NCBI GenBank assembly: GCA_965200925.1
Contig: OZ241738.1
Location: 332,052-396,051, forward strand
Origin: Alphaproteobacteria bacterium
GTDB lineage: Bacteria > Pseudomonadota > Alphaproteobacteria > UBA828
Length of the DNA: 64,000 bases
Direction of reading: 5' to 3'
Each line of letters starts with the position of its first letter. Positions within the stretch are counted from its first letter, which is position 1. The notes below the pieces were generated by a model, which worked only from the letters and a program-made list of their open reading frames with translations, had not been told where the DNA came from and did not search any database. Below, piece by piece: positions 20,025 through 38,400 of the stretch. Made by a program: the position numbers and the translations under genes.

Positions 20025-20249
20025 TCACCACAGCGGGTGGGTGTCGACGAGGCGTTCGGTGACCTCGCGGATGCGGGCGCGGTCCTGGACGGAGACGGGT
20101 CCGCGCCAGTCCTCGTTGAGATGGACGACGTAGCAATGGGCGCCCGGATCGAGGGCGTCGGGCTCCCGGTAGACGAACCCGACGCAATCGCCGTCGAGAC
20201 GGATGCGCGACTCGCCGGGGTTGATACGCTCGAAGGTGACGTGATCCAT
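20025..20249 (-). CDS. Hypothetical small protein (74 aa)
   Basis: An ORF with balanced, non-GC-artefact composition on the same strand as its neighbours. Confidence 0.3.
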   Translation of the reverse strand: MDHVTFERINPGESRIRLDGDCVGFVYREPDALDPGAHCYVVHLNEDWRGPVSVQDRARIREVTERLVDTHPLW

Positions 20250-20362
20250 GGTGCGGTTCCTCCCGTGGTTGGTGAAGCCCGATCGCCTGCGCGGCGCGCC
20301 GAGGGCCGGCTCTCTCCGTCCCCCGTAGCGGTCGCCCTACCCCCTGTTCTCTCCGCTCCCGT

Positions 20363-21349: not shown

Positions 21350-21480
21350 GGCGGCTCCCTCCGGGCAGTGCGGGACGCACCGTCCCGGCCCGCCTCGCGC
21401 CTCTCGCCGGTGCGCGGCGGGCGGGCGAGGCGCGAAGCGCAAGCGCCCCTCCTCGGGCGGAGCGGAGCCCGTGGAGCGGA

Positions 21481-22041: not shown

Positions 22042-22116
22042 GATGCCCTCCCATGCGAACTCGTCGCACTCGACGCACCGCTTCGCTCTGCCTCTCGCCC
22101 GCCGTCGTTGGAGGCG

Positions 22117-22165
22117 GTGGCCTCCGGTCGGGGGGCAAAAAAGGGGCCGACGCCGCGAGGCGCCG
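22117..22165 (-). terminator. Rho-independent terminator downstream of ssb
   Basis: On the minus strand the sequence reads GGGCCGGCGCCTCGCGGCGTCGGCCCC followed by TTTTTTTG. Confidence 0.45.
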
Positions 22166-22196
22166 GCCCGAGTGGGAGGGAGGAGAGGAAGGCCCG

Positions 22197-22664
22197 CTAG
22201 AACGGGATCTCGTTGCCGGTGTCGTCCGCCACCGTGGCCTTGTCGGCGACCGGCGCGGCCTCGCCGCCGGCGGGCGCCGTCGCCGTCTCCGCCGCCGGGG
22301 CGGGGGCGCCGTTGGGCTTGTCGAGGAACTGCACGCGCCCGCCCGGGACCAGCATGATCTCGGTCGAGTAGCGGTCGCTGCCCTCGCCCTCCTTGCGCCA
22401 CTTGCGGGTCTGCAGCTTGCCCTCGACGTAGACCAGCCGGCCCTTGCGGGCGTGCTTCTCCAGCATCCCGATCAGCCCGTCCTGGAAGGTGACGACCCGG
22501 TGCCACTCGGTGCGCTCGCGGCGCTCGCCGGTGGCCTTGTCGACGTAGCCCTCGTCGGTGGCGATGGACAGGTTGGCGACCCTGCCGCCGTTGGCGAGGG
22601 GGTTGACGATGGCGTCGGCGCCGAGGCGGCCGATCACCTGCGCGCGGTTCAATCCGAAGGACAT
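22197..22664 (-). CDS. ssb: Single-stranded DNA-binding protein
   Basis: An OB-fold SSB N-terminus (MSFGLNRAQVIGRLGADAIVN...WHRVVTF) is followed by a Gly/Pro/Ala-rich linker and an acidic tail ending DDTGNEIPF. RBS GGAGATCGTC precedes the start. Confidence 0.9.
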   Translation of the reverse strand: MSFGLNRAQVIGRLGADAIVNPLANGGRVANLSIATDEGYVDKATGERRERTEWHRVVTFQDGLIGMLEKHARKGRLVYVEGKLQTRKWRKEGEGSDRYSTEIMLVPGGRVQFLDKPNGAPAPAAETATAPAGGEAAPVADKATVADDTGNEIPF

Positions 22665-22770
22665 GACGATCTCCTCGTGGTCCTGGTTGCAGACGTTGGC
22701 TTGGCGAACGGGCCGGGTCTCTCTCGATCCCCTTCCCGTTCACCCTCTCGAACCTTCCCCTTCCCTCCTG

Positions 22771-22953
22771 TCATCCGTCCGCGCCGGTGCCGGGAGGGAA
22801 GCCCCTGAGTTCGCGGACGGCACGGACCGACAGTCCGATCTCGGCCAGCAGCCGGTCGCTGGCGAAGGGGGGCGGGAAGCAGTCGTCGTCGTTGCCGTCG
22901 GCGAGGCCGGTGACGATCCCGGCGGTCGGCGTCTCGAAGAGGTCGTCGAACAT
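22771..22953 (-). CDS. Hypothetical acidic small protein (60 aa)
   Basis: MFDDLFETPTAGIVTGLADGNDDDCF..., with RBS GGAG upstream. It lies at the 3' end of a longer artefact ORF. Confidence 0.3.
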   Translation of the reverse strand: MFDDLFETPTAGIVTGLADGNDDDCFPPPFASDRLLAEIGLSVRAVRELRGFPPGTGADG

Positions 22954-23228
22954 GGAAAGCTCCTGCGATAGAGGGGTCGAGAACGCCGCCGGGTGGGAGT
23001 CTCCCTCCCGCCCCCGGGGCGCTCGCCCCCTTCCGGGCTTCCCCTTCCTCGCCTTTCCGGCCCGGGGACCGCGCCGACCGGACGCGTCGAGCGATCGGCG
23101 GCCCTTCCAGCCTCCCCAAACAAGGCGGGCAACCCGCGTGGCTCTCCATGGGACTGCCATGCAAGCCGTAGCCGGGTTGGGGCCAGCCCCGGCCCATGGA
23201 CCGCCCTCTCGTGACGGGAGTGGAACGG

Positions 23229-24240
23229 TTATGACCAAGCCGTGGATCGCTGCATGGGCGAGACGTCGCCGAGCACCTCGACCTGGTCGAAGGACAACTT
23301 GGCGAAGGCGAGGCAGGCGGCGACCTCGGCCTCGCTGTCGTAGGTGCCGTGGTCCTCGCCGGTGGCGAGTTCGATGACGGTGTACCGGGCCGGCCAGGTG
23401 GGGATGCCGAGGAAGTGGCCCGAGCGTTCGTGGGACCGGCGGGCGCAGGGTTCGCACCTTACCGCCCCCCCGCGAGGGCTGTCCGCAGTCGGTGCAGAGC
23501 CCCCGCGCCCGCCGTCGGGCGTAGCGCTTGCGGCTGGCGGCGTTCTTCCGCCGATGGCGCCCGGCTTCCAGCGCGGCGCATCGGCCGCAGCGCGCGGTGC
23601 CGTCGAACGTGGCCTCCCCGCATCGGCCGCACAGGCCGCCCGCCCGCCGCCCGGCATACCGTTCCCGTTCGCCCGCGCGCCGCGTCCCTCGGCACGGCTC
23701 GCAGGCCGTGTGGCCCTCGACCGGCGGGTGCAGGCCGCACCGGGTGCACAGGCCGGCCTCGCGGCGGGCGTCGTAGCGCCGCTTGGTCCTGCTGCGCGCG
23801 TTGCGGCGACGCTCCTCCGGGTCGCGCCCGCCGTAGAGTTTGCCGGCGGCCTTGGCCTTCGCGTAGCGGGCACGCTCGGCCGCCTGCCGTTTCCCGGCGC
23901 AACGTCGGCACAAGGTGCGATCGGGCGTGGGCGGCGCCTTGCCGCAATTGGCGCACAGGCCCTGAGCGACGCGCTCGGCGGTGCGTTGCCTCTCGCGCGC
24001 GCGTTCCTTCTCGGAGTTCCTGTAGTGGGGCTTGCCGGCGGCCCTGCGCTTCGCGTCCCGGACGCGCTCGGCTTCGCGCCGCTTCCCGGCGCAGGGCGCG
24101 CACAGCCGGCGCTCAGGTTCGGGCGGCGCCTTGCCGCAATTCACGCACAGGCCCTGGGCGATGCGCTCGGCGGTGCGCCGCCGGAACCGGTCCCGGTCGC
24201 GCGCACGGCCCTCCTCGGGGTTCTTGTAAGCCATGTCCAT
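23229..24240 (-). pseudogene. Basic protein with five tandem zinc-ribbon-like repeats (GLCxxCGxxP...CxxCxxKR), split by a frameshift at a G7/C7 run
   Basis: Frame A (24240 to ~23465) carries repeats 1-4 and the start of repeat 5 (GLCTDCGQPS). Frame B (23873..23229) continues with RCEPCARRSHERSGHFLGIP..., which matches the second half of the repeat. The frames meet at CCCCCCC at 23465-23471, and six rather than seven C would restore a ~335-aa ORF. Confidence 0.55.
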
Positions 24241-24321
24241 GTCCTCCCTGCCGGGGTTGAAGTCCAGGCGAAGGACGCCCGGCCGGCGCGGGGCCGGCGG
24301 GGCGTCCCCGGAGAACGCCGC

Positions 24322-24642
24322 TCAGCCCCGCTTGCGCTCCGCGAACAGGCCGGTGGCGAGATCGCCCCAGTACTGCACGCCGCCCTTGAGGCGCATTCCG
24401 GTGCAGACGATGATCTCGTCGCGCGCGGGCCGCATCCGCTGGACCGCCCGCAGGGACACGATCTCCCCCTTCGCCTTGCGCCGGCCCTTCGCCGTCGGCT
24501 CGTCACCGGTCCGGCGGCGTATCTCGCCGTCGGCCATGGACCGGAAGCGCTCGACCAGGTAGCGGTCGTCGTCGAGGCCGGGGCCGAAGATGTGGGTGAG
24601 GAAAGTCTGCGTGTCGCGATGGGGGATCGTTGCCGTCCGCAT
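24322..24642 (-). CDS. Hypothetical protein (106 aa)
   Basis: MRTATIPHRDTQTFLTHIFGPGLDDDRYLVERF..., with GGAGACAGGACC upstream. It is divergent from the XRE gene. Confidence 0.4.
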   Translation of the reverse strand: MRTATIPHRDTQTFLTHIFGPGLDDDRYLVERFRSMADGEIRRRTGDEPTAKGRRKAKGEIVSLRAVQRMRPARDEIIVCTGMRLKGGVQYWGDLATGLFAERKRG

Positions 24643-24892
24643 GGTCCTGTCTCCGCCCGGTCCGTGGTTGGGGCGGCGGGGACGCCCTCGCGGACGCCCG
24701 ACCGCCGCCCCGCTCACGGCACAACCCGGACTCCCGGCGGCGCGTCGGCACCAGGTCGGAGAACGCCGGCCCCGGGGCGAGGCTCTCGTGCACCGGAGGC
24801 GGACGGCCGCCGGTAGGACGGCCATACGGATGCCGAACGGGCGGGCCTTGATGCGGCGCTGGCGAATGGAACGATCATGGAGGTGAGCTGCG

Positions 24893-25210
24893 ATGGCCAA
24901 GCAGTACAAGAGCGATGCCTTGGCGGCGGCGCATGAGACCACACTCGGCCTGACGGAGGCGGGCGTCATGGCGAAGCGCACGATGAGGGTCTTCGACGAC
25001 CTGTGTCTTACGCCGGTCGAAGACATGACGCCGGAGGAGATCCGGGAAATCCGGATGCGGGAGAACGCGAGTCAGGCGGTCTTCGCCCGATATCTCAACG
25101 TGACCACGAGCTTGGTGAGTCAGTGGGAGCGGGGCGAGAAGCGGCCGCGGGGCGCTTCGCTGAAGCTCTTGACGCTGGTCGCGAAGAATAGCCTCGATAC
25201 GGTCGCGTGA
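24893..25210 (+). CDS. XRE-family helix-turn-helix transcriptional regulator (HigA-like)
   Basis: The HTH is AVFARYLNVTTSLVSQWERGEKRPRGASLKLL. No convincing toxin partner is adjacent. Confidence 0.8.
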   Translation: MAKQYKSDALAAAHETTLGLTEAGVMAKRTMRVFDDLCLTPVEDMTPEEIREIRMRENASQAVFARYLNVTTSLVSQWERGEKRPRGASLKLLTLVAKNSLDTVA

Positions 25211-25362
25211 CGGAGGCAGCTGCCCCTGGCGGCGCGCCTGCGGAATACGACAACCGGGCGTGTGCGCGTGCGGCGGCGCGAATCCGATAATGACGGCTTC
25301 GAAGTGATGGCAGGATCGGCCGTCCGGGACGCGCGCGAGTTGGAAGGCGCCCGACGCCGCGG

Positions 25363-25551
25363 CTACTTTCCGATAAAGCCGATGTAGACGTAGAGCGCGG
25401 CCAGGGCCACGGTGACCGCGATGCCGATGTTGCCGTAGATGGGGGCGACCTGGAGACCCAGGAACAAGGCGAACGAGAACACGAGGTAGAGGCTGGCGAG
25501 GGCGGCGACGTGAGCGAGGACTTTCAGCACCTTCCGGGTCGTCGGGGTCAT
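25363..25551 (-). CDS. Small hydrophobic two-helix membrane protein (62 aa)
   Basis: MTPTTRKVLKVLAHVAALASLYLVFSFALFLGLQVAPIYGNIGIAVTVALAALYVYIGFIGK. Confidence 0.35.
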   Translation of the reverse strand: MTPTTRKVLKVLAHVAALASLYLVFSFALFLGLQVAPIYGNIGIAVTVALAALYVYIGFIGK

Positions 25552-25799
25552 GGGCCGCCCGGCTCCCCGACCGGCGCGGCGGGTTCGACGACGCCGTTCG
25601 GATCCGGCGACCATGCAGGCTGGCGCAGATGGTGGGGGCGTCGTGACTGCGGCGCGAGGCGCCTGCGATCACGAAGGTTCCGCCATCGGTAGAAGGTGGC
25701 GCGGGAGACGCCGACGGCGTTGGCTGCGGCTTGTGCGGTCAAGCCGTCGGACTTGACCTGTTGCCATCGGTCGAGAGCGTCGCGTCTGTCTCGAACCAA
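25548..25799 (-). mobile_element. N-terminal HTH fragment of an IS481/IS3-like transposase (truncated remnant)
   Basis: LTAQAAANAVGVSRATFYRWRNLRDRRRLAPQSRRPHHL resembles the transposase HTH plus the DRSRRPH motif. There is no catalytic domain downstream. Confidence 0.45.
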
Positions 25800-26068
25800 C
25801 AGCTTCGGAGATCCCTACACTCCTTCAACAACCGCGTCTCATATCTGTCTGAATTTGTTCATGGATCCCGCCATCGAACGCCACCACCGCGCGGCGGCCT
25901 CCCGCCCTGGAAAAGTCAAACGAAGATGTAGTATACTGCCGTCGGCATCGGGGAACTCCTCTGAGGCGAGATAACTCTTTGGCAACAAAAGAATTATCCC
26001 ACATCCAGAGTCCCGATGTACCGCCCCTTGTGAGAAATGCGGGCTAACAGGAATACAGGTATCCAATC

Positions 26069-26350
26069 ATGCCGCCCACTACATACAAGGTCACGGAAGC
26101 CCGAGCTCACTTCTCGGAGCTTCTGGCGCGGGCCCGAGCCGGCGAGGAGATCGTCATCACCAAGGGCCACGAGCCCCATGCCCGGCTCCTGCCGCCGGCC
26201 GGGCGCGGGGAGCGGGAGAGTGTGCCGCTAGGACATCTCCACCTGCCGGACGACCTCTTCGACGGCGACGATCCGGAACAGGCCGTGATCGATGCCGGCG
26301 ACCGCAACGATGCCCTCGGCATTTGGCGCGGCCGCGCGGCCGCTTCGTGA
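26069..26350 (+). CDS. vapB: Phd/YefM-family antitoxin
   Basis: YKVTEARAHFSELLARARAGEEIVITKGHEPHARLLP. The gene overlaps the downstream PIN gene. Confidence 0.8.
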   Translation: MPPTTYKVTEARAHFSELLARARAGEEIVITKGHEPHARLLPPAGRGERESVPLGHLHLPDDLFDGDDPEQAVIDAGDRNDALGIWRGRAAAS

Positions 26351-26724
26351 GACTGCTCCTTGACAGCCATGCCGTCTATTGGTGGATGACGGGTAACATC
26401 CGGCTGTCCGCGGTCGCCCGGGAACTGATCCTCGACGGCGCGAACGCCGTTCTGGTCAGCGCGGTTTCGATCTACGAAATCGAGCTCAAGGCCGGGCGCA
26501 GGCGCGTGAACCTGCCGCCCCAGGAACTGCGGGCGGCGCTCCGGCGCAACGCTGTCGAGGAGCTGGCCGTCACCCACGACCACGCGGAGTATGCCGCCCA
26601 TCTCACATGGGAGCATCGCGATCCGTGGGACCGTCTGCTGGCTGCCCAGGCCCTTCTGGAGAACTGCGTCCTCGTGTCGGTCGACAAGGTCTTCGACGGC
26701 ATCCCCATCGACCGGCGTTGGTGA
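26323..26724 (+). CDS. vapC: PIN-domain toxin VapC
   Basis: LLLDSHAVYWWMTGN...SAVSIYEIELK...DPWDRLLAAQALLENCVLVSVDKVF carries the PIN acidic residues. The start is TTG at 26323 or GTG at 26347. Confidence 0.85.
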   Translation: MARPRGRFVRLLLDSHAVYWWMTGNIRLSAVARELILDGANAVLVSAVSIYEIELKAGRRRVNLPPQELRAALRRNAVEELAVTHDHAEYAAHLTWEHRDPWDRLLAAQALLENCVLVSVDKVFDGIPIDRRW

Positions 26725-26988
26725 ACCCGGTTGCAATCGCCTGCCCAGCCTGTGCATGAGTCTGCGACGACGAGACACCGTCGAGGTAATGGCGCTCGGC
26801 ATGACAGCGCTTAGCGAACTGGAAACAGTCCTGCGCTCGCGAACGGTAACATGGCGTGATGCTGCACATCGACAGCGCATGGCCTTGCTCTTCTGTTCTA
26901 AATCATGCGATGAAGTGAGATCGAATTTGGGTGGCATGCCAAGGCTTGTTTCAAGATTTCAAGAGATTTACAGACACCAATCCTCGCA

Positions 26989-28245
26989 TTACGATCGGCC
27001 AAGCTCCTCGGGACGTACATCCATCAGCGTATCGATCCGGTCAGCGATTCGTTGCGCGGGCTCCCGGAGTTGCTCTGCGGTCCAGTCGGCAGCGTAGCCC
27101 TCGGTCACGTCATTGGGCCGGGCATGGTTGACCAGACGCTTGGTCAGGCTCTGCGGCAGCATCAGCTCGCGCTCGGCCACTGTGATGAAACAGTTGCGGA
27201 AGCCGTGGAACCAGAATTTGGCGCCGCCAGCCTTGGTGATCCGGCCGTAGAGATGGTGCGGATCCTCGACATGGCCCGACGCGCTGGTGAGAGAGGGAAA
27301 CACCCAGGCGCGGATGTTGTCCGGCAGGCCCTCGCTTTCCGCCCGGCGGCGCTCGAGGATAGCGCTCAGTTGTCGGGTGACAGGAAGCTCCAGCGGCACA
27401 CCGGTCTTGGTCTCTTCAACTCGAAAGGTCATCGCCGCCATGTCCACCTGCTGCCATCGCAGGGTCAGCACTTCGTCGCGACGCATGCCGGTGTAAAGCC
27501 CGAACCACAGCGCGTCCCGGATCGCCGGGTTGTTCACCTCGGCTTCGATGCCGGCGCGCCAGCATGGCAGGACCTCGGCCGGAGTGGATATCTTGCGCCG
27601 TACCTTGCGGTGAAACTTGCCGCCGCCGGCGAGCCACAGGTCGACCGGGTTGCGCAGGCCGTCGAGATCGACACAGGGCCGACGATAGACCGAGCGCAGC
27701 AAAGAGATCGCTCGGTTGGCCGGCGACCACCCGTGATCCTCGGTGATGCGGTTGAAGCGGCCCTCCACGTCCCGGCGGGCGATGGCATCGAGGGGGCGGG
27801 AGAGCCAATCACCGAGATAGCGCTTGGCCTCGTAGCGGTAGAGCTCGTTCGTGCGTCTGGACCGGTTGGGATTGACCGCCATGTAATCCTCAAAGGCGTC
27901 CCCAAGCGTCGGCATGGTGCGCGCCTCCGCCCGGTCCTCGGCCGGGTCGTCGCCGTCGGCGACCTTGCCGAGGGCCTTCTGCGCCAGCCGCCGTGCCTGA
28001 TCGGGGGCGACCTTGCCGTAGCGGCCGAGGACGACACGCTTGTTGGGGGCCTTTCTGCCGCCATCCCCGGCGCGGTAGTTGACGATGAAGGATTTGACGC
28101 CGGAGGGCTGGATGCGGACGCCGAAGCCGGTGAGCTTGTCGTCCCATGCGATCCAGGGCGTGCTGGCGGGCTCGAGGGCATCGACGGCGCGCTTGGTGAG
28201 CGTCAGCTTGGTTTTCGCGATGCGTTTGGCGGTCTGGGCATCCAT
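26989..28245 (-). CDS. int: Tyrosine-type site-specific integrase (P4-like, with N-terminal arm-binding domain)
   Basis: The N-terminus is LTGFGVRIQPSGVKSFIVNYR. The catalytic motifs are RDALWFGLYTGMRRDEV, HGFRNCF and LVNHARPNDVTEGYA. Confidence 0.9.
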   Translation of the reverse strand: MDAQTAKRIAKTKLTLTKRAVDALEPASTPWIAWDDKLTGFGVRIQPSGVKSFIVNYRAGDGGRKAPNKRVVLGRYGKVAPDQARRLAQKALGKVADGDDPAEDRAEARTMPTLGDAFEDYMAVNPNRSRRTNELYRYEAKRYLGDWLSRPLDAIARRDVEGRFNRITEDHGWSPANRAISLLRSVYRRPCVDLDGLRNPVDLWLAGGGKFHRKVRRKISTPAEVLPCWRAGIEAEVNNPAIRDALWFGLYTGMRRDEVLTLRWQQVDMAAMTFRVEETKTGVPLELPVTRQLSAILERRRAESEGLPDNIRAWVFPSLTSASGHVEDPHHLYGRITKAGGAKFWFHGFRNCFITVAERELMLPQSLTKRLVNHARPNDVTEGYAADWTAEQLREPAQRIADRIDTLMDVRPEELGRS

Positions 28246-28435
28246 TCAGAAAATGTGGCCCGCCTGGTGATCCATGTCAACACCTGTATCAACACGGTAA
28301 ATCGATATGGGACGCTCTACAGCGCAGGTGTGACGGGTTTGTATGCGGGAAAATACACTCAATACATTGATATTACGATATGTATGGCGCTTCCGGCGCA
28401 TCCGGTCGCAACACGGCGTAAATTAGCTGGCGAGA

Positions 28436-28480
28436 CTCATAACCTGAAGGTCGCAGGTTCGAATCCTGCCCCCGCAACCA
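28436..28480 (+). other. Partial tRNA, 3' 45 nt only (CAU anticodon loop through T-arm, acceptor and CCA), the probable att core of the integrative element
   Basis: The anticodon loop CTCATAA is followed by stem CCTGA, variable region AGGTC, T-arm GCAGG-TTCGAAT-CCTGC, acceptor CCCCGCA, discriminator A and CCA. Upstream there is no complementary acceptor 5' strand (TGCGGGG) and no anticodon-stem partner, so the gene is not intact. It lies 190 nt from the integrase start. Confidence 0.65.
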
Positions 28481-28483
28481 CTC

Positions 28484-28520
28484 CAAACCCCTGGAAACAT
28501 TGATGTTTCCGGGGGTTTTC
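28484..28520 (+). terminator. Rho-independent terminator immediately after the tRNA fragment
   Basis: The palindrome CCCCTGGAAACAT-TG-ATGTTTCCGGGGG is followed by TTTTCTCGTTTC. Confidence 0.6.
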
Positions 28521-28649
28521 TCGTTTCTGGTATAGCGCTTCTTCCGGTCTGGCAAACGATTGGCAAACATCGGGAATCGAAGTCTGGCGCACCCGGGCGA
28601 ACGACCGGCGTCGTCAGTGGCCAGTTGCTCCCAAGCCATCCCCGACGGC

Positions 28650-28900
28650 ATTTTACCCGCCATCGGGCGATCCGCCGCGCCGATGAACGGTTCGTCGACA
28701 TCCGCGCCCAGGGGCGACGCACTCGTGGGCGCTCCGGTCGGGCTTGCAGACGATCTGAGGGGATGTCCTTGTGTTCGATGCTTCGCAGAGTGCCGCGCCG
28801 TCCGGGAGGCCGGCGAGAGCCTGCCGCGCGGCGTCGGAGATCGCGGCCTCCGGATCGCCCTCGGAGCGCCGGAAACCCAACCCGCCCGGGCCCGGCGCAT
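28650..28900 (-). pseudogene. Degenerate remnant of the DUF2493/SLOG gene
   Basis: The minus-frame sequence GDPEAAISDAARQALAGLPDGAALCEASNTRTSPQIVCKPD parallels GGPGAERIAASWAERNEVHQIVCKPDWD of the intact gene at 18027-18950. The nucleotide string GTCGGGCTTGCAGACGATCTG is shared. Confidence 0.4.
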
Positions 28901-28974
28901 GAGGCCGACCGCTGCGTCGCCGCACCCGGCTTCGTAGAGGGTGTCGAGGACCGCCGCCTCGTCCCCGCCCGCCC

Positions 28975-29622
28975 TCATCCCGCCGAGAGCAAGTCGCGGA
29001 GAAAGGCGGAGAGGTCCGCGAAGGCGTCTGAGTCGAAATCCCATACGCCCTGCAGGGCGCCTTCGCCCACCCGCGCCACGGGGTCGTCCGTGGCAGCGAG
29101 ATAGGCATGGGCGAATGTCTTGTCGCGGTTCCCGGAGCGCGTAACCCCGCGCCCGTCGAGACAGCTCAAGTAGTCTTCGACGCATCCGCTCACGGCGTCC
29201 CCTTCTCGGGAGCGCTTGCACAGGGTTTCGATGGCGCCGGGCGTGCTACCGTCCGGAACGATGAACACGCCGACGGTCGGCTTGGCGTCTGAAAACCCGC
29301 CGTGGGCCGTCGGCGGCTCGTATCCGGCGTCGCAAAGATGGTCGCAGAGGCTCTGGAACGCGCCGCCCGCATTGTCGTCGGCGTCCCGGACTGCGCCGAT
29401 GGCCCGGACACTCCGGGCTTCGGCCGTGATCGCACGCAGATTGTTCGGAAACCTGTCCCTACCTCCCGCGTCGATGACTTGTATCTCCGACCGTCTTTCC
29501 CTGCCAAAGCGACGTCTTATAAGTACATCGAACAGGTTGACTTCGTCGCGGCCTTCCACCAGCAACAGACGATCCTTCTCGATCTTCAGCTTTTGCCTGT
29601 CGCTCCCCACGTCGGCTGTCAT
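28975..29622 (-). CDS. Small TOPRIM/OLD-like protein (DUF4276- or RloB/AriB-like), 215 aa, partner of the upstream ATPase
   Basis: The N-terminus reads KDRLLLVEGRDEVNLFDVLIRR, a toprim-like glutamate motif. An acidic DxD-like cluster follows at AIGAVRDADDNAGGAF. The start ATG overlaps the ATPase stop (TGATGA), indicating translational coupling. GC content is lower than the surroundings. Confidence 0.5.
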   Translation of the reverse strand: MTADVGSDRQKLKIEKDRLLLVEGRDEVNLFDVLIRRRFGRERRSEIQVIDAGGRDRFPNNLRAITAEARSVRAIGAVRDADDNAGGAFQSLCDHLCDAGYEPPTAHGGFSDAKPTVGVFIVPDGSTPGAIETLCKRSREGDAVSGCVEDYLSCLDGRGVTRSGNRDKTFAHAYLAATDDPVARVGEGALQGVWDFDSDAFADLSAFLRDLLSAG

Positions 29623-30677
29623 CACCGGGTCTCCAGGTCGAGATCGCGTACGCCCTCGAGCGTCTCGCCAGTGAAGGTCGTCGCTTCCACCTTCCCCGTC
29701 TTCTCGTTCCTGAACAGCTTGTGGATCGCCAGATCGTTCGGTGCGTCTTCGAACGCGGCCATCGCCGCGTCGATACATTCGGCGCTGTGGGTCGTCGCCA
29801 CCAGTTGCGCATTCCACTGACGCATCCACGTGCGTCCATGCGCCCAAACATCCTTCAGCACGGAATGGTGAAGGCCGTTTTCCACCTCATCCGAAAAAAG
29901 AACTCCGCCGCGTGAAGTAAAAAATCCAAGAAATAACTGACACAATCGAACGACTCCACCTCCGAGATCGTGAAGTGGTAACTGCACGCCATCGTTCGTG
30001 ACGGCCGACAGGTACGGTCCTCCTGTTTCGTCAGTCAAAATCCCCACATCCGCAACTTTAGGAAAGATAAAGTTGATCGCATTTCTGAAATCGTCTTTAT
30101 GGTTTTTCCTTACCATATCCGAATATTTCTGAAGATAGTTTTCGGGTGTTTCGTGTTGAAATTTTGTGCTCAAAATAGTACTGCTTGGTCTCTTCGAATG
30201 AGGCTCGGGCGTGTGAAGCGCCACCGTCCCCCAAGGAGTCGGAAGCATTCCTGTAGCCTTTTGTCCCGCGGGGATTCCATCCAATTCCGTGTGGACCTGT
30301 CCTACCGTGGGTAGCTCAACAAAGCTGTTTTCCGCTGAATTCTCAATCGGTGCCGTCCTGACGTCCGAAACGTCACCGACTTTCTTGAAAGTGGCTTTCA
30401 AATTGTGAAGAGATTCGTTCTCCACTCCCTCCAGTTCCAACACACCGTTCGTCAATTTGGCGATGGGATCCAGTATTGGCCTATTGGAACGCTGCACATT
30501 GGCATTCCATAACAACGAGGTGTTGTATCGTCCGGTGAACAGCCACATCGCCTCAATCACCGCCGTCTTGCCAATCCCGTTGACGCCGGTCACAAGATTG
30601 GCGTTCGCCAGATGGCGGAAGGAAAGTCCATCTATCCCTCGATAGTGGACGGCCTTGAAACTGGTGAAAAAAGTCAT
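29622..30677 (-). CDS. AAA_21/AAA_15-type ABC ATPase (~351 aa)
   Basis: Walker A is LVTGVNGIGKTAVIEAM. The signature-like segment is DLGGGVVRLCQLFL, Walker B with D-loop is VLFSDEVENGLH, and the H-loop is LVATTHS. The start was chosen at MTFFTSFKAVHYRGIDG (30677, with a GGGGA RBS), and an alternative ATG lies at 30710. The region is about 50% GC against about 70% around it. Confidence 0.75.
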   Translation of the reverse strand: MTFFTSFKAVHYRGIDGLSFRHLANANLVTGVNGIGKTAVIEAMWLFTGRYNTSLLWNANVQRSNRPILDPIAKLTNGVLELEGVENESLHNLKATFKKVGDVSDVRTAPIENSAENSFVELPTVGQVHTELDGIPAGQKATGMLPTPWGTVALHTPEPHSKRPSSTILSTKFQHETPENYLQKYSDMVRKNHKDDFRNAINFIFPKVADVGILTDETGGPYLSAVTNDGVQLPLHDLGGGVVRLCQLFLGFFTSRGGVLFSDEVENGLHHSVLKDVWAHGRTWMRQWNAQLVATTHSAECIDAAMAAFEDAPNDLAIHKLFRNEKTGKVEATTFTGETLEGVRDLDLETR

Positions 30678-31498
30678 CTCATGTCCCCACTTCCGGAGTC
30701 GCGTTGCCAAGGGCGTCGAAACCGCGACTCCGTTCCGCGCTGGAGAGTGCCGAGGCTTCGGTTGCGCTCCAGCAACTCCCGCAGTGCCTCTTCATCGGAA
30801 ATGCTCACACCCCAACCGTAGGCGGCGGCGACAGCGGCGTCAAGATTCGTGTGGGCGTCGGTGAGCCATTGGGGGCGGGTGTTGTAGAGGGCAGTCAGGG
30901 TGCGCTTCTTGAGCTCCCTTGCCACCGCTTCGTCGCGAGGGGCGGGGCGTCTGGGGTAGCCGGGGATCGGTTCCTCCAGCCACTCCACCCATTCGGGCGG
31001 GTTGAGCCAGCGGTCGCGGAGGGCGACCAAGCGGCGGGCAGCCTCGGCGCTGGCGCTGGTGCGCGGGTCGTCGGCGTAGGCGGCCGCGGGGATGTCGGGG
31101 GAGAGGCCTTGGGGGAAGGGGAAGGTTTCGAAGGTTGTGGTGGGGGTGTAGCGGGGGCGGTCCTCAAGGCTGGTGCCCAACCGCAATGACCATGCTTCGT
31201 GAAACCGGCTGTGCAGGATGCCGAAGGTCGTGTCGTCGTCGCGGGCGATCACGATCAGCGGGTGATCGGGGCAGACGCGCGAATCGAGCCAGACGAACAG
31301 CCGGTGCTTGGCGACGGTGGGCGTGGCGATGTAGCGGGATGCCACGCCAATCCGCTGGAACATCGTTTGTCCCGAGCGATCGTGCCGCCACCAGTTCCGT
31401 CGCAGATCGTCACGGCGATTGCGATCTCGCACCGGTTTCACATGCTCCAGGACATGAGCGAACGGCGCTTCGTAGAGCGCGGCGTCGGCTTCGCTCAT
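30674..31498 (-). pseudogene. C-terminal fragment (~274 aa) of an MmeI/PglX-type (type IIG RM or BREX) methyltransferase
   Basis: TPTVAKHRLFVWLDSRVCPDHPLIVIARDDDTTFGILHSRFHEAWSLRLGTSLEDRPRYTPTTTFETFPFP matches the conserved C-terminal domain of MmeI/PglX-like enzymes. No methyltransferase or N-terminal domain is upstream, where an integrase fragment sits instead. Confidence 0.55.
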
Positions 31499-31557
31499 CG
31501 TGTGTCCAAAATCAATGATCCACTTGCCGGACGGGCGCCGCGTCACGTCCATGCCGT

Positions 31558-31795
31558 TTATCATCCCTGGCGGCGCATCCGGGCGCGCGCAGGCCTCGAC
31601 GACGTGCGCATCCACGACCTCCGTCACAGCTTTGCCTCCCGCGCCTTGGCGCTCGGCGAGGGCCTGCCCATGATCGGGAAGCTGCTCGGCCACACCCAGT
31701 CCAGACCACCGCCCGCTACGCTCACCTCGCCCGCGATACCGTCAAGACCTCCGCCGCCCGTATCGGCGACAGCATCGAGCACGATATGACAGAGG
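31558..31795 (+). pseudogene. Tyrosine integrase C-terminal fragment (frameshifted)
   Basis: WRRIRARAGLDDVRIHDLRHSFASRALALGEGLPMIGKLLGHTQ is about 90% identical in DNA to 33100-33342. A 1-nt deletion lies before the catalytic Tyr region. Confidence 0.6.
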
Positions 31796-31922
31796 TAGAA
31801 TAACGGGCTCGCGGGATCCGATGAGTCCGTGCGAAACAGGATGTCGCCTGTCAGGACTGTCTCCGCATCACTTGACGTATCTCAATTGAGATTCATATGG
31901 TTGGCAAATGGAGGAATGCCCA

Positions 31923-32216
31923 ATGCCCGCTCAGACATCGATGCTCCATGTCCGCGTGGACAATCAACTCAAGACCAAAGCGGCCGACACGCTGGCTGGC
32001 GTCGGCCTGACGCTCTCGGATGCCGTGCGCATCCTCCTGACCCGTATTGCCGCGGAGGGTGGGTTGCCGACCGGCCTGACCACCGACCCCGAAACCCATG
32101 ACGCGTGGTTCCGCGCCAAGGTACGGGAAGCCCTGGACGATCCGCATCCCACTGCTTCACACGAACAGGTCATGAGCGACGCGCAGGCGCTGATCGACGG
32201 AAAGCGCCGTGCGTGA
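31923..32216 (+). CDS. relB: RelB/DinJ-family antitoxin
   Basis: MLHVRVDNQLKTKAADTLAGVGLTLSDAVRILLTRIAAEG. RBS GGAGGA precedes the start by 7 nt. There is an 8-nt overlap with the toxin gene. Confidence 0.75.
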   Translation: MPAQTSMLHVRVDNQLKTKAADTLAGVGLTLSDAVRILLTRIAAEGGLPTGLTTDPETHDAWFRAKVREALDDPHPTASHEQVMSDAQALIDGKRRA

Positions 32217-32490
32217 TCTTGAATGGAAGACCTTGGCGGTCTCCGATCTGATGGCGATCATCGATTATATTTCGGACGACAATCCCAAGGCCGCCCAAGC
32301 CTTGAAGGAAGATATCGAGAACAAGGTGTCGCGTTTACGGGACAACCCACGACTTTACAGGGTCGGTCGCGTGGACGGCACCCGCGAGATGATCGTGCGT
32401 TCGAACTACCTCGTCGTCTATGCCGAGGTCCCCCACACTGTCACGATACTTCGGGTGCTGCATGCGGCCCAGCAGTGGCCCGAAACATGA
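32209..32490 (+). CDS. relE: RelE/ParE-family toxin
   Basis: WKTLAVSDLMAIIDYISDDNPKAAQALKEDIENKVSRLRDNPRLYRVGRVDGTREMIVRSNYLVVY. Confidence 0.8.
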   Translation: MRDLEWKTLAVSDLMAIIDYISDDNPKAAQALKEDIENKVSRLRDNPRLYRVGRVDGTREMIVRSNYLVVYAEVPHTVTILRVLHAAQQWPET

Positions 32491-32748
32491 CGACGGTCGG
32501 TCGGCCATCTTGACAAATGAACCGAGACCTCTGCAGGCGGCGGGCTTGAACGAGGGACCGATCGCCGGTGGGACGGCGTAGGCCTCTCGTGGACCGCGAC
32601 GGGGACTGTGGCAGCAGCGTTGGCGCTCGCTCCCTATCTCGAGACTATTGCAACCGGCGGGGTCTTTATCGATAGGGAGACAATCGCCGGGCTCGAATCC
32701 GCGGCCATGAACGGCCGGCCTGCAACCGCTTGAAGACGGCGGCTCGCC

Positions 32749-33342
32749 TTGCGTCCGTTTCCTTCCCGACAGCCAAGCCGTCGAGCTCAATCGGCTCGGG
32801 CAGGTCCTCGACGAGATGACGTCGGACGGCTCGGAAACCCGTTCGGCGGTGGTGGCGATCCGACTCCTGGTGCTTACCGGCTGTCGGCTGTCCGAGATCC
32901 AGAAGCTGCGCTGGGAGCGTGTCGACTTCGATGCCGGCGAGTTGCGGCTTCCCGACAGCAAGACCGGAGGACGTGCGGTGCCGCTGGCGCCCTCCGCCGT
33001 GCGGCTCTGGCGGCTCTGCCTCGCGACCCGGATAACCCGTGGGTGATCGCCGGAAGGAAGCCGGGGACCCACCTGACCGACCTGCAACATCCCTGGCGGT
33101 GCATCCGGGCGCGCGCAGGCCTCGACGACATGCGCATCCATGACCTGCGGCACTCCTTCGCCTCCCGCGCCTTGGCGCTCGGCGAGAACCTGCCGATGAT
33201 CGGGAAGCTCCTCGGTCATATCCAGGTCCAGACCCCCGCTCGCTACGCTCACCTCGCCCGCGATACCGTCAAGGCTTCCGCCGCCCGCATCGGCGACAGC
33301 ATTGAGCGCGATCTGGGGGCGGAGGAAACAAGCGCGGTTTGA
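32749..33342 (+). pseudogene. Tyrosine integrase fragment (catalytic domain, frameshifted, N-terminus missing)
   Basis: One frame gives VAIRLLVLTGCRLSEIQKLRWERVDFDAGELRLPDSKTGGRAVPL (32816..33046). A second frame gives PWVIAGRKPGTHL...RIHDLRHSFAS...LLGHIQVQTPARYAHLA (to 33342). Confidence 0.7.
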
Positions 33343-33348
33343 GCGCGC

Positions 33349-33618
33349 TTAACGGTTTCCGGCGTCGAGAACCCGCTGAAGCCGGTCGAGTGCAGCCGCA
33401 TGTTTCCGCCCGCTCATTCGACCGAGATTGACGAGTTTCCATCTGACGGCCGGCAGCCCGGCAACATCGGAGAGATCGATGAGCGACCAGTCCGGATGCC
33501 GGCCCTTTACCGACAACAGGAACGCGCGATCCCCGTCGGTGAGTGCGCCATGAATGTCCGCGATAAGCCGCTCGCGCGCCTCGGTCAGCGCGATCAACGG
33601 AACCGGCTCGCGGGTCAT
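33349..33618 (-). CDS. Hypothetical protein (89 aa), possibly the C-terminal part of the AbiEii-like gene
   Basis: The start overlaps the upstream stop by 4 nt (ATGA). Confidence 0.3.
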   Translation of the reverse strand: MTREPVPLIALTEARERLIADIHGALTDGDRAFLLSVKGRHPDWSLIDLSDVAGLPAVRWKLVNLGRMSGRKHAAALDRLQRVLDAGNR

Positions 33619-34255
33619 ATGCTTGAACTCGCCTTCGTAGAATGCGCGGACGGGCTTGCGCCTCGGGGCCAGTTATGGCCGATCAGATAGACCAGAAAAG
33701 TCATGAACAGGCCCCTGTCGATGCCCTCGTTGTTCAGCAGCTGCGTGATGTCGAACAGATCGCGCGGGTGCTGCCGGTCGAGCGCCGCGCACATCTTGCC
33801 CGCGTAGAGATCGTTGAACGACAGGATCCGGTTCTCGGTGTAGCCCAAGCTTTCTTCGACTTCCGCGACGACGGCCCGCGTTTCCGAAGGCCAGACCGCG
33901 CCGCGCGCGACCGGGGAGACCTCGATCTTGATACGACAGTCGTGCAACTCTAACGTAAGCCGCAACGCATCCGTCGCGGATGGATCCGTGGTCTGCACCC
34001 CGATGCCGGGAATGGCGCCCCTCAAGTCTTTCGCGAGCGTGTCGAGACCCCGGCGTATCGCCGGCAAGGCCTCTGTTGGCGAGGCGAGCGCGGCAAGTAG
34101 GCGAGATCGATGTCCACCGACAGACGGGGCAGATTGCGCAGAAAGAGACTGATCGCGGTGCCGCCCTTCAAGGCGAACTCGTCCCGCCTCGCGACATAGG
34201 GCAGGACCCGGACCACGAGCTCCACTTGGCGGTGGAACGGATTGCGCCTATCCAT
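33615..34255 (-). pseudogene. AbiEii-family nucleotidyltransferase toxin (type IV TA), split by a frameshift near 34022-34067
   Basis: The N-terminus is FALKGGTAISLFLRNLPRLSVDIDLAYLP (NTase GS...DxD). The second ORF carries ...HPRDLFDITQLLNNEGIDRGLF. Confidence 0.55.
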
Positions 34256-35048
34256 GCATCGCTTCCGGCACGGTGATCCCGTACCGGCTCACCAGCCGAC
34301 CGCCCTTGGCTAGAACTCGCTTGCCGCGACCGAGATCGAAGTCGCCCGGTTCCAGACGCTTCGCCCAGGAATGCCCCTGCCGCTCGGCCAACCAGAAAAA
34401 CAGGCGCTTGACCTTGATGCTGCGCGTCCGGCGCAGGAGTGCGTCGAGCCGGCGCGGCGAAAGGTCGGCAAGACTTTCCATCAGTCGCTCCGCGTACTCG
34501 AACGACACTCCCGCCGGCACGTCCTTCAATATCTCGAACAACGCCCGCTCGGCCGTCGAGGTCTGCACCGCCCAGAAGCCGTCGCCCCAAGGAACGTCGA
34601 CCGTCAGGGACGGCGTGAGGCGCCGCGCCTCGTCCCCCGCCGGCCCGTCCGGCCCCGACAGCCATGCCGTGCCATGCCGGTGGAACGTCTCGGCGGTGCC
34701 GAGCCCGTTGATCCACGGCGGCAACGGCCGGGGGCCGTACAGGTGTATCGCGCGTCGCCCAGTCAGAGGCAGATAGTGCGCCCGCCCATGCAACTCCAGC
34801 GCGGTCGTTCCACCGACGACGAGACCACTGCCCATCCGTTGGAGGGAGCAGACGATTCCCTGCCAGACGAGCCGACTCCCCGGGCGTATGTATACGCCGG
34901 CCCGGAGCGGCATGAGCTGGCCGCTCTTGACCAGGTTGTCGACGGCGTGCCGGGCGATGCCGCGCTCCATGAGCCACGGCCGGGTGGCGAGGAGGCCGTA
35001 GGGAACCAACTCCAGCAGTTCGGTGCGTAAGGCGACATTGAGAGGCAT
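34248..35048 (-). CDS. AbiEi-family antitoxin/transcriptional regulator (266 aa)
   Basis: A winged-helix N-terminus (LVKSGQLMPLRAGVYI) precedes a C-terminal domain. The position, orientation and 8-nt overlap with the downstream NTase gene fit AbiEi/AbiEii operons. Confidence 0.6.
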   Translation of the reverse strand: MPLNVALRTELLELVPYGLLATRPWLMERGIARHAVDNLVKSGQLMPLRAGVYIRPGSRLVWQGIVCSLQRMGSGLVVGGTTALELHGRAHYLPLTGRRAIHLYGPRPLPPWINGLGTAETFHRHGTAWLSGPDGPAGDEARRLTPSLTVDVPWGDGFWAVQTSTAERALFEILKDVPAGVSFEYAERLMESLADLSPRRLDALLRRTRSIKVKRLFFWLAERQGHSWAKRLEPGDFDLGRGKRVLAKGGRLVSRYGITVPEAMHG

Positions 35049-35174
35049 GGTTCGAGTTCGATCGATTCCGCAGCGATTATCGCCGCAAATACTAATACAA
35101 GGAAACCGTGTGCCGAGCCACCTGGAAGTTTGGTCAATATCGATTTTGCGGCGTTGACCGCCGCTGAAACGGGG

Positions 35175-35465
35175 TCACGCAGGCACGGCCGCATGGCCGT
35201 CGCGGGCGAGGCCCGCCTCCACCGTGGGCAGGGCCTGCTCACAGACCCACGCGGCGAGCCGGTTGCGGATCGCTTTCGTCCGGCGCTGCTCCTGGCCGCG
35301 GGTGGGCGGCAGCGCCTCGTCGCCGACGGCGCCCGCGAGATCGGGTGCGGAGGCGCGGATGTCGTAGGTGATGTCGATGTCCTCGGAGAATCGCCGGACG
35401 GTGCGCCACGCTTTCGCCGGCGATGTCCCGCCGATGAGTTCGGAATGCCGCATCGCCGCCCGCAC
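35175..35465 (-). pseudogene. N-terminal fragment of a second AbiEii-like nucleotidyltransferase
   Basis: ELIGGTSPAKAWRTVRRFSEDIDITYD carries the GGT...RFSEDIDI NTase motif. The ORF is only 96 aa. Confidence 0.35.
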
Positions 35466-35484
35466 GGTCGCGGCCGGCGCGCTG

Positions 35485-38400
35485 CTACCACCTCAGCCGC
35501 AGGTCGATGCGGGCGCCGTGCTCGGGGGCGGCGGCGCCTTCCTTGCGTTCGGCTTCGAGACCGACGGCGAGGTCCGGCCCGAACGCGGAGCGCGTCCCGA
35601 GGCGCCAGCGCCGCGCCCCGCCCTCTTCGTAGCCGAACCCGACATGGGGCGTCATCACCCCGGCCCCGTTCCACACCCCGAACCCGTAGCCCAGCTCCGC
35701 CTCCAGGCGCGCCGTGTTGGCGTCGGTGGTGGCGTCACCCGACGAAACGCGGCCCGTCATCCCTTTGTCCCATAGCCGCGCGAGGCCGCTCTCCGATGCC
35801 CCCCAACGCGGCGACAGCGTGAACGACAGGCCCCGGCCGCCGGGACCGGGCGACAGCTGCGCCGACCCCGACGCGCCCCATTCCTCCACGTCGCCCTCAT
35901 GCGCCACCAGCGTCCGGCCCCGCGCCTCCACCGACAGGCCGCCCGACACCCATTCGAGACCGCCGCCCAGTTCCACGCCCGCGCCGGTCTCCCCGTCGCC
36001 GCCGTCCCAGCGCGCGCCCACCTCCAGCGACGGCGTGAACGCGCCCCCGCCCGCCAGCGCGTATGTCCGGCTTCCTTCCGCCGCGAGCCGCACGCGCCGC
36101 GTGTCCACGGACACCTTCTCGAGCGCCGATCCGTTGTCCTCCACCGAATAGCGCGTCGCCTCCCCCGATCCCTTCACCGCCAGCGCCAACCCGCCCACCG
36201 ACGCCACCGGAACCGAGCCGCCCACCGCGACGCCCACGAACGCACTGTCGCCCTTCTGGACCCCGAAACGCTCCCCGACCTCCTCGTCCGCGATCTCGAT
36301 CTCGCCCTCGCCGTAGCCCAGCGCGCCCCACAGGCGCGAGCCGTTCGAACCCGTCCACCCTGCATACGGATGCACCGCCGCAAGACGGCTCTCGTGAGCG
36401 CCCGTGACCGCTGCCACATCCCCGCTCCGGTCCGTGTAATCGATCTCGCTCTCGAACCACGACATCGCCAGACCGCCCCGGAGACCCTCTCCCAGCGGCG
36501 CATCAACGCCCACGTGCGCCGAGAACAGCTCGCCCGACCAGTCCAGAACATCCTTGTCCAGCGACAGCGAACGCCGGCTCCCGCCGCCCCACATCACCGC
36601 CGGGGAGCCGGAGCCGCCGCCGCCAACACCCGCGCCATCACCGGCCCCACCGCCGCTGCCGGCACCGGCGACGCCAATGCTACCGCCGCCCAGCGCCACC
36701 GCGAACGTCCGGCCCTCCAGAACCTTGCGCCACGACAGGCCTTCCCCATCCTGCGCGTCTTCCTGCGCCTTCAGCGCCGAAGCCAGCGTGTCCGCCGTCC
36801 CGCCGCCCGTACCCGAGGACTCCAGGCGACCCGTCACCGCCTCAACCACGCTCCCCCATTGCGCACGCGACAACTCCGGCAGGATCGACTCGTTGATCGC
36901 CTTCAGACGCTCCCGCGCCGCGCCCAGGTCCGACACCACCTCGATCTTGACGGTCGTCTGGCCCTCGTCGCCGTCGACGTCCCGCGCGATCCAGCTATAG
37001 TCCCTCGCCTTCATCGGCTCGGTCGGCGTACCCGACAGGGTGCCCGTGTTCGGGTCCACTACCAAGCCGGGCGGAGCGTCCGGCTCCAGGCGGTAGGTCA
37101 CCTCGACGTCTCCCTCCGCCCTCGGCAGCGTCTCCGACTGCGCCTCGTCCACCGTGAAGGTGTAGGTCTTCCGGGACGCGACGTCGAAGCTCGGCTTCGT
37201 GTCCACGTATCCCACCGCGAACGGCGAGAACGACCTCATGCCAGGCGCACAGACACGCATCCGATCTGCATCGAACGACGAATCCGCAACCTCCGCCCAA
37301 ACGTTGCCGTCATAGTGCAGCAGCAACCCCTCCCGACCGGCCGCCGCCTGCCGCAGGCCGTCGCTCACAGGCAAGCACACCTTCAGGCCCGACGACGGAA
37401 CCGTACCCGTCACGCTGATGTCCACCACCCGCCGCGCGGTCCCCAACGCCTCCGCCAAGCCGCCGAAGCCGTCGCCCGCCGCCTTCGCCAGCGTCGCCGC
37501 AGAGACCTCCGGCGAGAACGTCAGCGCCAGCGGCGGACCCGCTCCCACACCCGCCAGATCGACCTCGATCCCCGCCGGCACTCCGGACTCCACCGTCACC
37601 GTCACCCGGCGGCCCCCGATGTCGTAGGTCGTCCTTCCCGCCGCGCCATCCGTCACGATCCTGGTGTCGCCGGGATCGGAGACCGCCACGGCCAGCGTTC
37701 CCGTCACGCCGCCGTAAGCGCCGCCCGACGCCGCGTGCGTCAGGGACGCCACGTCGGCAAGGTCGTCGTCGTCCGGCTGCGCGGTCACCATCACCGTCTG
37801 CGCCGCGCTCCAGTCCGACGGGGTGAAGGTCAGGCGGAATGGAGAAACCGTCAGGTCGGCGTCGTCCGGCGAGATCGAGATCAAGACCGTCACGGTCCCG
37901 GCGGGCCTGCTGGTCAGCGCCGCCGTGTACGCCGCGGCCTCGCCCCCCACCGCCGCAACCACCGCCGCCGGATCAAGCACGAACCCCTTCGTGTCGTCGT
38001 CCTCGATGGTCAGTTCCGCGTCCGTCACCGCCATCGTCGTCGAGTCCGCCGTGGCGCGGGAGTTCGCCACCGTCGCCGAGACCGTCACCGTCTTGGCGTC
38101 CGCGTCGATGTAGTTGTTCTTCGCCGTGATCGTCACCACACCGGTGCTCTCGGTCGCGCTCGCCGCGATGGTCAGCATCTTGTCCATGCTCAGCGTGTAG
38201 TCGCCTTCCACCGCCGGGGACACCGGCGTCACCGTCACCGTCGTCGCCGCGGACGACGGATGCGACAGCGTCGCCGTCACCGTCGAGACGCCGCCGTTCT
38301 CCACCACCGACGACGGGTTCAGCGCCAGCGTCACCCCCGGCGGGCCGTCGTCGTCGGTCGTCGTCACGGACACGTCCTCCTCGACCGACGACGTGTCGTA

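Follow-up and report, generated by a model that had tools for sequence, protein, structure and literature searches.

Positions 28481 to 35484 of the 64,000-nt stretch analysed here (the window; positions 332,052 to 396,051 of contig OZ241738.1, from an alphaproteobacterium of lineage UBA828) lie between a tRNA-Met 3' fragment, the attachment (att) site of a resident integrative element, which ends at 28480, and the stop codon of a giant adhesin open reading frame (ORF) at 35485. Judged by its sequence, this zone of ~7 kb is a mosaic of residues from several mobile elements, carrying in part truncated or frameshifted integrase, restriction and toxin genes. We favour the hypothesis that it is the eroded residue of several integrative elements, with their defence and addiction cargo, at the tRNA-Met att site, an origin that we consider probable.

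A mosaic beside a tRNA-Met attachment site

The zone divides into five blocks, A to E, of differing base composition (Table 1). The G+C content (GC) of each block lies between 52% and 73%, versus ~71% in the flanks; the window as a whole has ~70% GC, with a lower-GC stretch of 55-68% over ~25000-35000. Contigs matching the blocks were recovered by exact-protein look-ups and homologue searches. Labels L001 to L093 designate the loci or contigs recovered as relatives, nearly all of them metagenome-assembled genomes (MAGs) or metagenome contigs. For four of the five blocks, unrelated metagenome contigs supply a more intact relative: L089 and L090 for block B, L084 for block C and L093 for block D, block A being represented by a recurring arm adjacent to the att site. 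Pfam and PADLOC profile searches of the zone fragments recover nearly every item listed in the initial annotation, at about the same coordinates, and the comparison with relatives that it called for yields intact versions for blocks B, C and D. Its description of the region as a decayed-gene zone suits the truncated and frameshifted genes; it does not extend to the AAA_21 and DUF3226 pair, RelBE and AbiEi, which look full length against their homologues. The lesions in the zone are deletions and small indels, not homopolymer slips.

The proposal of an integration and defence hotspot with repeated insertion and deletion agrees with this mosaic beside the att site, with the intact relatives of blocks B, C and D and with the variable cargo found at the same position in related genomes. 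One relative, L001, encodes an identical Int-A integrase and is 97-99% identical to window positions 17354-28480. It diverges at the end of the tRNA fragment, and just past the att fragment it carries (L001:1-9600) a type III-B Cmr cluster, HsdR and an AAA_15 protein. Scanning one genome per species for Int-A relatives gives 80 loci at 63-91% amino acid identity; in 17 of these the tRNA-Met fragment and the integrase are spaced as in the window. Among the 132 ORFs found past the att site in these 17 loci, the commonest encode transposases (Mutator, DDE_Tnp_1, IS66, rve, IS21), ResIII/DEAD helicases, type IIG and type I restriction enzymes, Type ISP, McrBC, RAMPs and integrases. A 1617-aa type IIG/ISP enzyme occupies this position in L002, and DpdE/DrmD-like and DruE-like helicases are found in L015, and SNF2-helicase genes are also present here among the related genomes. 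The content at this position is thus variable in L001, L002, L015 and others, as is characteristic of a hotspot. Defence systems are known to ride mobile elements into dedicated hotspots, and 18 of 41 such hotspots in E. coli are tRNA loci (PMC10121019).

Relatives of Int-A (L002 to L081) are found in MAGs labelled Alphaproteobacteria, Rhodospirillales, Binatia, Thermodesulfobacteriota, Vicinamibacteria and Gammaproteobacteria, often in several copies per genome, and the record title of one names a sponge (Spongia_Bin9). This distribution suggests one Int-A element family common to several phyla in one habitat.

Table 1. Blocks and features of the zone and of its two borders (window coordinates).
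Feature	Positions	Strand	Description	Evidence
Int-A	26989-28245	-	Intact P4-type tyrosine integrase (418 aa) of the resident element; left of the zone	Pfam Arm-DNA-bind_3 and Phage_integrase
tRNA-Met 3' fragment (att site)	28436-28480	+	45 nt, anticodon loop to CCA end; not a complete tRNA	
Block A	28481-28980		Att-adjacent arm and YAcAr trace	
Att-adjacent arm	28481-28600	+	Conserved; terminator-like hairpin 28486-28520; iteron TGGCAAACGATTGGCAAAC 28550-28568	
YAcAr/DUF2493 trace	28710-28777	-	Weak	Short nucleotide matches and weak hidden Markov model (HMM) match
Block B	28981-31562		DUF3226, AAA_21, 3' piece of MmeI-family gene	
DUF3226 protein	28975-29622	-	215 aa, TOPRIM-like, intact	Pfam DUF3226, E=1.6e-28, 2-207/208
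AAA_21/ABC-type ATPase	29622-30677	-	351 aa, intact	Pfam AAA_21, E=1e-14, 2-301/304; PADLOC PDC-M38A, E=5e-38
MmeI-family type IIG restriction-modification gene, 3' third (MmeI')	30674-31561	-	End of target recognition domain (TRD) and C-terminal domain	Pfam and PADLOC
Block C	31573-32562		Integrase stub and RelBE	
Int-B(a) stub	31562-31801	+	Residues ~297-391/391; 1-nt frameshift near 31699	tblastn with full-length Int-B of L009
RelB/DinJ-family antitoxin	31908-32216	+	Intact	Pfam RelB and PaaA2; NCBIfam RelB_DinJ
RelE/ParE-family toxin	32209-32490	+	Intact	Pfam ParE_toxin 1-89/89; NCBIfam RelE_StbE
Block D	32782-35173		Second integrase stub, AbiEii, AbiEi	
Int-B(b), 5'-truncated	32717-33342	+	Residues ~181-391; 1-nt deletion near 33007	
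AbiEii toxin pseudogene	33349-34255	-	Three frames: 3-59, 63-184 and 206-289 of 290	PADLOC AbiEii
AbiEi antitoxin/regulator	34248-35048	-	266 aa, intact	Pfam AbiEi_3_N and AbiEi_3; PADLOC AbiEi, E=1.8e-78
Block E	35175-35465		Piece of second AbiEii type	
Second AbiEii-type nucleotidyltransferase piece (AbiEii-2')	35175-35465	-	96 aa, cut at both ends	PADLOC PDLC02289, 54-116/309, E=9e-15
Giant repeat adhesin	35485-56598	-	7037-aa ORF, 345-bp tandem repeats; right boundary of the zone	

Content of the blocks

The core of the resident element, located between two copies of adhesin sequence, comprises a YAcAr/DUF2493 gene (18027-19040), a DUF7146-Toprim_3 gene, a 2OG-Fe(II) oxygenase gene, a Phd/PIN pair (26069-26724) and Int-A. 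The tRNA-Met fragment starts 190 bp past the Int-A start codon and aligns base for base to nt 33-77 of an intact tRNA-Met in L006, where it stands at the distal end of a related 8-kb element; no complete tRNA is detected by ARAGORN in the 64-kb window. The arm that follows the fragment in block A is also kept after the tRNA-Met 3' end in L004, L006, L008, L018 and L077, in L006 next to the intact tRNA as well as next to the displaced fragment, while L002 and L003 conserve the hairpin alone. This arm looks like an element end, suggesting that Int-A inserted beside an older resident. Block A had also been thought to hold a remnant of the DUF2493 gene of the element. What is found is a trace: 44 nt, including the conserved QIVCKPD motif, with 82% identity to the YAcAr gene of the element at 18183-18225 (E=2e-7 in a 0.7-kb search), and 51 nt with 84% identity to the YAcAr gene of L056. 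At this place a custom HMM, constructed from seven YAcAr homologues, scores 10.6 bits across 24 residues. The trace has no Pfam match. A recognisable gene piece is not supported, and a gene-length remnant was rejected since tblastn, the custom HMM and word-7 blastn recover one short motif only.

Block B is 86% identical to L089 and L090, in which an MmeI-like gene of at least 845 aa (reaching the contig end) is followed by a gene for a 229-aa protein, the AAA_21 gene and the DUF3226 gene. A deletion of ~635 bp removed the 229-aa gene between MmeI' and AAA_21 in the window. The same junction is found in L091 at 80% identity, which argues that the deletion is old and real. The best 120 homologues of the AAA_21 protein are nearly all 344-354 aa long (a few up to 387), with coverage of 95-100%, and the ATPase also matches the AbiLi and AriA profiles of PADLOC. 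The AAA_21 and DUF3226 genes overlap by 1 nt. Their pairing recurs in L089, L090, L091 and L092, and the DUF3226 protein shares 77% amino acid identity with its counterpart in L089/L090 along the full length. This protein matches PADLOC PDC-M38B (E=7e-10, positions 5-217/220) and has a conserved E23 and D80-x-D82-D83. The OLD-like_TOPRIM profile scores below threshold on it (20.5 bits versus a cut-off of 23.2), sequence searches of the PDB give no or insignificant matches, and its single-sequence AlphaFold model is unusable, with a predicted local distance difference test (pLDDT) score of 37. A literature search on DUF3226 found no papers. Both genes of the AAA_21/TOPRIM cassette listed in the initial annotation are thus present, although as an intact pair, not a remnant, and with a sub-threshold TOPRIM match. 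The pair is probably still functional and, if still expressed, would be a candidate abortive-infection type defence.

Exact-protein look-ups return no identical copy of AAA_21 (as a 362-aa ORF) or of AbiEi. The pair decays elsewhere too, DUF3226 being split into ORFs of 46 and 138 aa at positions 7092-7740 of L091. The Rfam scan gives nothing at gathering score; a RAGATH-25 match inside the 5' end of the AAA_21 gene (30591-30642; 22.5 bits versus a gathering score of 49, E=0.076) is probably due to chance. The ATGA overlap at 30674-30677 had raised the possibility that the MmeI-like gene, AAA_21 and DUF3226 form one conserved operon. This was rejected, as L086 to L088 have a non-homologous AAA_15 gene and L089 has the intervening 229-aa gene; the overlap is a by-product of the deletion of the latter.

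MmeI' corresponds to residues 570-836 of the L089 protein. The last ~295 codons are kept and the nuclease, helical and methyltransferase parts are gone. Pfam assigns MmeI_TRD (PF20466, 137-206/207, 32.6 bits) and MmeI_C (PF20467, 22-78/83, 27.1 bits), both reaching the cut-off of 27, and the PADLOC REase_MTase_IIG profile matches at positions 770-1038/1136 (E=2.4e-76); the DrmMI profile of the DISARM defence system matches less well. The homology of block B to L089 ends exactly at 31562, the first position of Int-B(a). The reading of this fragment as the C-terminal part of an MmeI/PglX-type methyltransferase abutting an integrase fragment therefore stands for MmeI, with its two matching domains and the junction at 31562, and does not for PglX, a family that is absent from the eight PADLOC matches of MmeI'. 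A former bacteriophage exclusion (BREX) or type IIG restriction-modification system had been deduced from it. BREX genes (PglZ, BrxC and others) are found neither in the zone nor around the relatives L086 to L090, and the closest relatives of MmeI' stand alone, as type IIG genes that also encode MmeI_N, helical and methyltransferase domains. By these domain matches and gene neighbourhoods MmeI' is what remains of a stand-alone type IIG enzyme; the BREX/PglX origin is unsupported, and the annotation is to be corrected in that sense.

The best 120 homologues of MmeI' are just 266-516 aa long, and the gene is split into at least two ORFs in L086 to L088. In five contigs (L086 to L090) the MmeI-like gene is followed by a gene for a conserved 229-234-aa protein without any match in Pfam or NCBIfam. 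This type IIG family is either widely pseudogenised or a genuinely split gene with a partner of unassigned family. An adjacency of methyltransferase and RelBE genes on a Roseinatronobacter plasmid was dismissed as coincidental, gene order and orientation being different.

The two integrase pieces derive from Int-B, a P4-type integrase of 391 aa found in full length in L009. The direct repeat that had been noticed between them, now placed at 31562-31785 and 33088-33312 (shifts of ~10-30 bp), is 89.8% identical over 225 bp (E=5e-78) with one 1-nt indel. It corresponds to the conserved 3' end that two copies of one integrase gene have in common, and is no target-site duplication. Int-B(a) lacks the box I Arg and Lys and is frameshifted, and Int-B(b) lacks the DNA-binding N-terminal half and is frameshifted too, so that both are inactive. 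The equivalent of Int-B(b) in L093 is a 222-aa stub without frameshift, and truncated Int-B stubs occur also in L003 and L068. The stubs start at residues ~170, ~170, ~181, 288, 297 and 312; these differing junctions indicate that the cuts are not site-specific. Cutting of Int-B at a fixed breakpoint was considered and rejected, the true junctions even within the ~170 group being roughly at least 20 nt apart. Full-length Int-B genes in L009 and L022 are located ~200 bp from the same tRNA-Met 3' fragment with the geometry of Int-A, which implies that the Int-A and Int-B families both use this att site. In L009 an Int-A element, the att fragment and then an Int-B element follow each other in one orientation, as a tandem array.

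Between the two stubs is the RelB/RelE pair that the initial annotation had recognised, identified by both Pfam and NCBIfam. Block C is 96% identical to L084, where a near full-length Int-B gene lies just upstream of the same RelBE. RelB has 98-99% amino acid identity in L084 and L085, and an identical RelE-family toxin is found on two other metagenome contigs. Both genes are of full length, and RelBE is probably still functional.

Block D is 90.3% identical over 2412 bp to L093, whose gene order is AbiEi, an intact 307-aa AbiEii and the 222-aa integrase stub. Base-by-base comparison of the window with L093 shows an insertion of 2 nt near 34073 (AbiEii codon ~60), a deletion of 19 nt near 33673 (AbiEii codons ~196-202) and a deletion of 1 nt near 33007 in the integrase, none of them in a homopolymer. 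The toxin gene of the AbiEi/AbiEii pair, already described as frameshifted, accordingly carries two frame-breaking lesions; it is also recovered by tblastn with homologues of 305-309 aa. AbiEi is probably alive; its full-coverage homologues are mostly 257-267 aa long. The homology to L093 ends at 35173, two bases off the start of block E. The latter is the further nucleotidyltransferase fragment of the initial annotation and belongs to a different AbiEii subfamily; the adhesin stop codon is 20 bp beyond it. No close relative of this second AbiEii-type piece was found.

Origin of the zone

The favoured history is one in which elements of the Int-A and Int-B families would have inserted repeatedly at this tRNA-Met. 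Later deletions would have taken most of each older element and spared the toxin-antitoxin (TA) modules just downstream of the integrase gene, RelBE and AbiE, such modules presumably being retained because loss of the antitoxin is penalised. An Int-B tandem array with TA genes downstream of the integrase, as in L084, could lose the stretch from one TA module to the 3' part of the next integrase gene, and such deletions would leave behind units made of an integrase stub and a TA module. One deletion may have taken the nuclease and methylase two-thirds of the type IIG gene together with the 5' part of Int-B(a). The AbiEii toxin would have decayed afterwards, while the AbiEi antitoxin/regulator remained intact. 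The pattern of an integrase 3' stub followed by a TA module is found twice in the window (with RelBE and with AbiE) and twice in L093 (with AbiE and with a PIN TA module).

Several observations weigh against this history. The att fragment is unique in the window, with neither a second copy nor any other tRNA remnant surviving in 28620-35700, and no intact tRNA-Met is present within the window, so that a full array is not visible. Both Int-B stubs are on the + strand, while older members at a + strand att site should have their integrase gene on the - strand; an inversion or import as cargo is needed to account for them, and the history is more than serial insertion. Block D, integrase stub included, is found in other surroundings in L093, which implies that some truncations predate arrival here and were not made in place. 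The AAA_21 pair, for its part, has lost its native upstream gene and promoter region.

A bolder extension is that stub and TA units are a regular product of Int-B arrays at tRNA-Met, which would collapse by deletions anchored on TA genes, the stubs then acting as portable homology by which stub and TA blocks would move from locus to locus. We hold this improbable; if true, Int-B arrays would progressively accumulate addiction and defence modules in these bacteria, which are apparently sponge-associated. The direct-repeat stubs flank AbiE in L093 (6149-9392) and RelBE in the window (31562-35048).

An alternative that we find possible, if rather unlikely, places the decay inside element cargo. 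The zone would then be no chromosomal hotspot but the integrase-distal cargo end of a second, much larger element copy of ~45 kb that carries the adhesin as well, two such elements standing in tandem. A block of ~8 kb is indeed duplicated ~45 kb apart (11002-18978 and 55886-64000, 98-99% identity) and holds the adhesin 5' end, a second autotransporter gene, a small gene and the YAcAr end of the element core, so that adhesin and core both occur twice. The iteron arm after the att fragment, like that after the intact tRNA-Met in L006, resembles an element end, and the YAcAr trace lies 250 bp from the att site in the orientation of the element. However, L001 diverges from the window on both sides of 17354-28480, which puts the adhesin outside the element there, and the window stops before a second integrase and att site could show. 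This alternative would alter where the decay happened, not what the zone is.

The erosion itself could be questioned, the frameshifts and fragments being then sequencing or assembly artefacts of a MAG whose genes are truly intact. The relatives are themselves nearly all from metagenomes, the frameshifts of Int-B(a) and Int-B(b) are both single-base differences, and two poly-G tracts differ by one base between the copies of the duplicated block. The AbiEii lesions, however, lie outside homopolymers and amount to 19 and 2 nt, the truncations are structural junctions with unrelated sequence beyond, one of these junctions is common to the independent contig L091, and truncated Int-B stubs recur in three other contigs. 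We consider such artefacts very unlikely to account for the zone. Least credible of all is a working shufflon-type cassette in which MmeI' and the recombinase would switch the specificity of a type IIG or BREX system subject to phase variation. Type I hsdS loci and some pglX loci are known to exchange TRDs by means of a recombinase, and the resemblance consists solely in a TRD-bearing gene piece abutting a recombinase gene piece. No other MmeI-like sequence that could serve as partner gene is found anywhere in the 64-kb window, no inverted repeats link MmeI' to a partner, the adjacent Int-B(a) is a frameshifted stub deprived of box I Arg and Lys, and neither a PglX match nor BREX genes are found.

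Comparison with known systems and the duplicated adhesin locus

Tandem accretion of integrative elements at one att site has been described for integrative and conjugative elements and for integrative and mobilizable elements. The present locus is similar in that Int-A and Int-B share the tRNA-Met core, L009 has an array and an element-end arm follows the att fragment; it differs in that the window keeps one att copy and the older integrases are inverted stubs. With tRNA-linked genomic islands and the defence hotspots of E. coli (PMC10121019) it shares the P4-type integrase next to a tRNA 3' fragment and the variable defence and TA cargo, and integrase-only and degraded islands occur among them too. 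It departs from them in that the target is tRNA-Met in relatives among uncultured high-GC alphaproteobacterial MAGs, that neither an intact tRNA nor an empty site is seen here and that the stubs have an unexpected orientation. The locus is a case of ordinary, well-known island decay, a new example and not a new kind.

The AAA_21 and DUF3226 pair resembles PARIS, described as the combination of an ABC ATPase (AriA) and a TOPRIM nuclease (AriB) (PMC11464382), as well as AbiL and PDC-M38, the PDC systems of PADLOC being candidate, predicted defence systems (10.1101/2024.01.29.577857). They have in common an ABC-type ATPase, a small TOPRIM-like protein, the 1-nt gene overlap and the E...DxD motif. 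The partner here is, however, DUF3226 instead of the DUF4435 of AriB, with a TOPRIM match below threshold. MmeI' has the TRD end and C-terminal domain of MmeI-family type IIG (IIL) enzymes, and its L089 relative has the usual upstream domains, in contrast to the ~295 codons left in the window. The AbiE module has the organisation of type IV TA systems, with an AbiEi_3-type regulator followed by AbiEii, an 8-nt overlap and the order seen in L093, but its toxin gene is broken twice and the module is preceded by a piece of a second AbiEii subtype. RelBE is a type II TA system in which the genes for RelB/DinJ and the ParE-fold toxin RelE overlap by 8 nt, and similar pairs are common on alphaproteobacterial plasmids. 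Apart from its position just downstream of an integrase gene, as in L084, it is unremarkable.

For annotation, MmeI', the two Int-B stubs, AbiEii and AbiEii-2' are to be considered dead, and RelBE, AbiEi and the AAA_21 and DUF3226 pair as probably alive. The zone is assigned to a tRNA-Met-targeting element family, one found very commonly within a group of uncultured marine MAGs. It is a further case of defence and addiction genes accumulating and eroding at tRNA integration hotspots and raises no new question alone.

The copies of the duplicated adhesin block differ by a 120-bp indel (17957-17964 versus 62859-62979), at which L001 resembles copy 2. They differ also in the poly-G tract located ~24 nt ahead of the ATG start codon of the gene for the 1589-aa autotransporter (11751-16520, - strand), which has 22 residues in one copy (16544-16565) and 23 in the other (61437-61459). 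The extra G of copy 2 puts an upstream start in frame, giving a 1702-aa ORF (56641-61749). This difference could reflect slipped-strand phase variation or a homopolymer length error.

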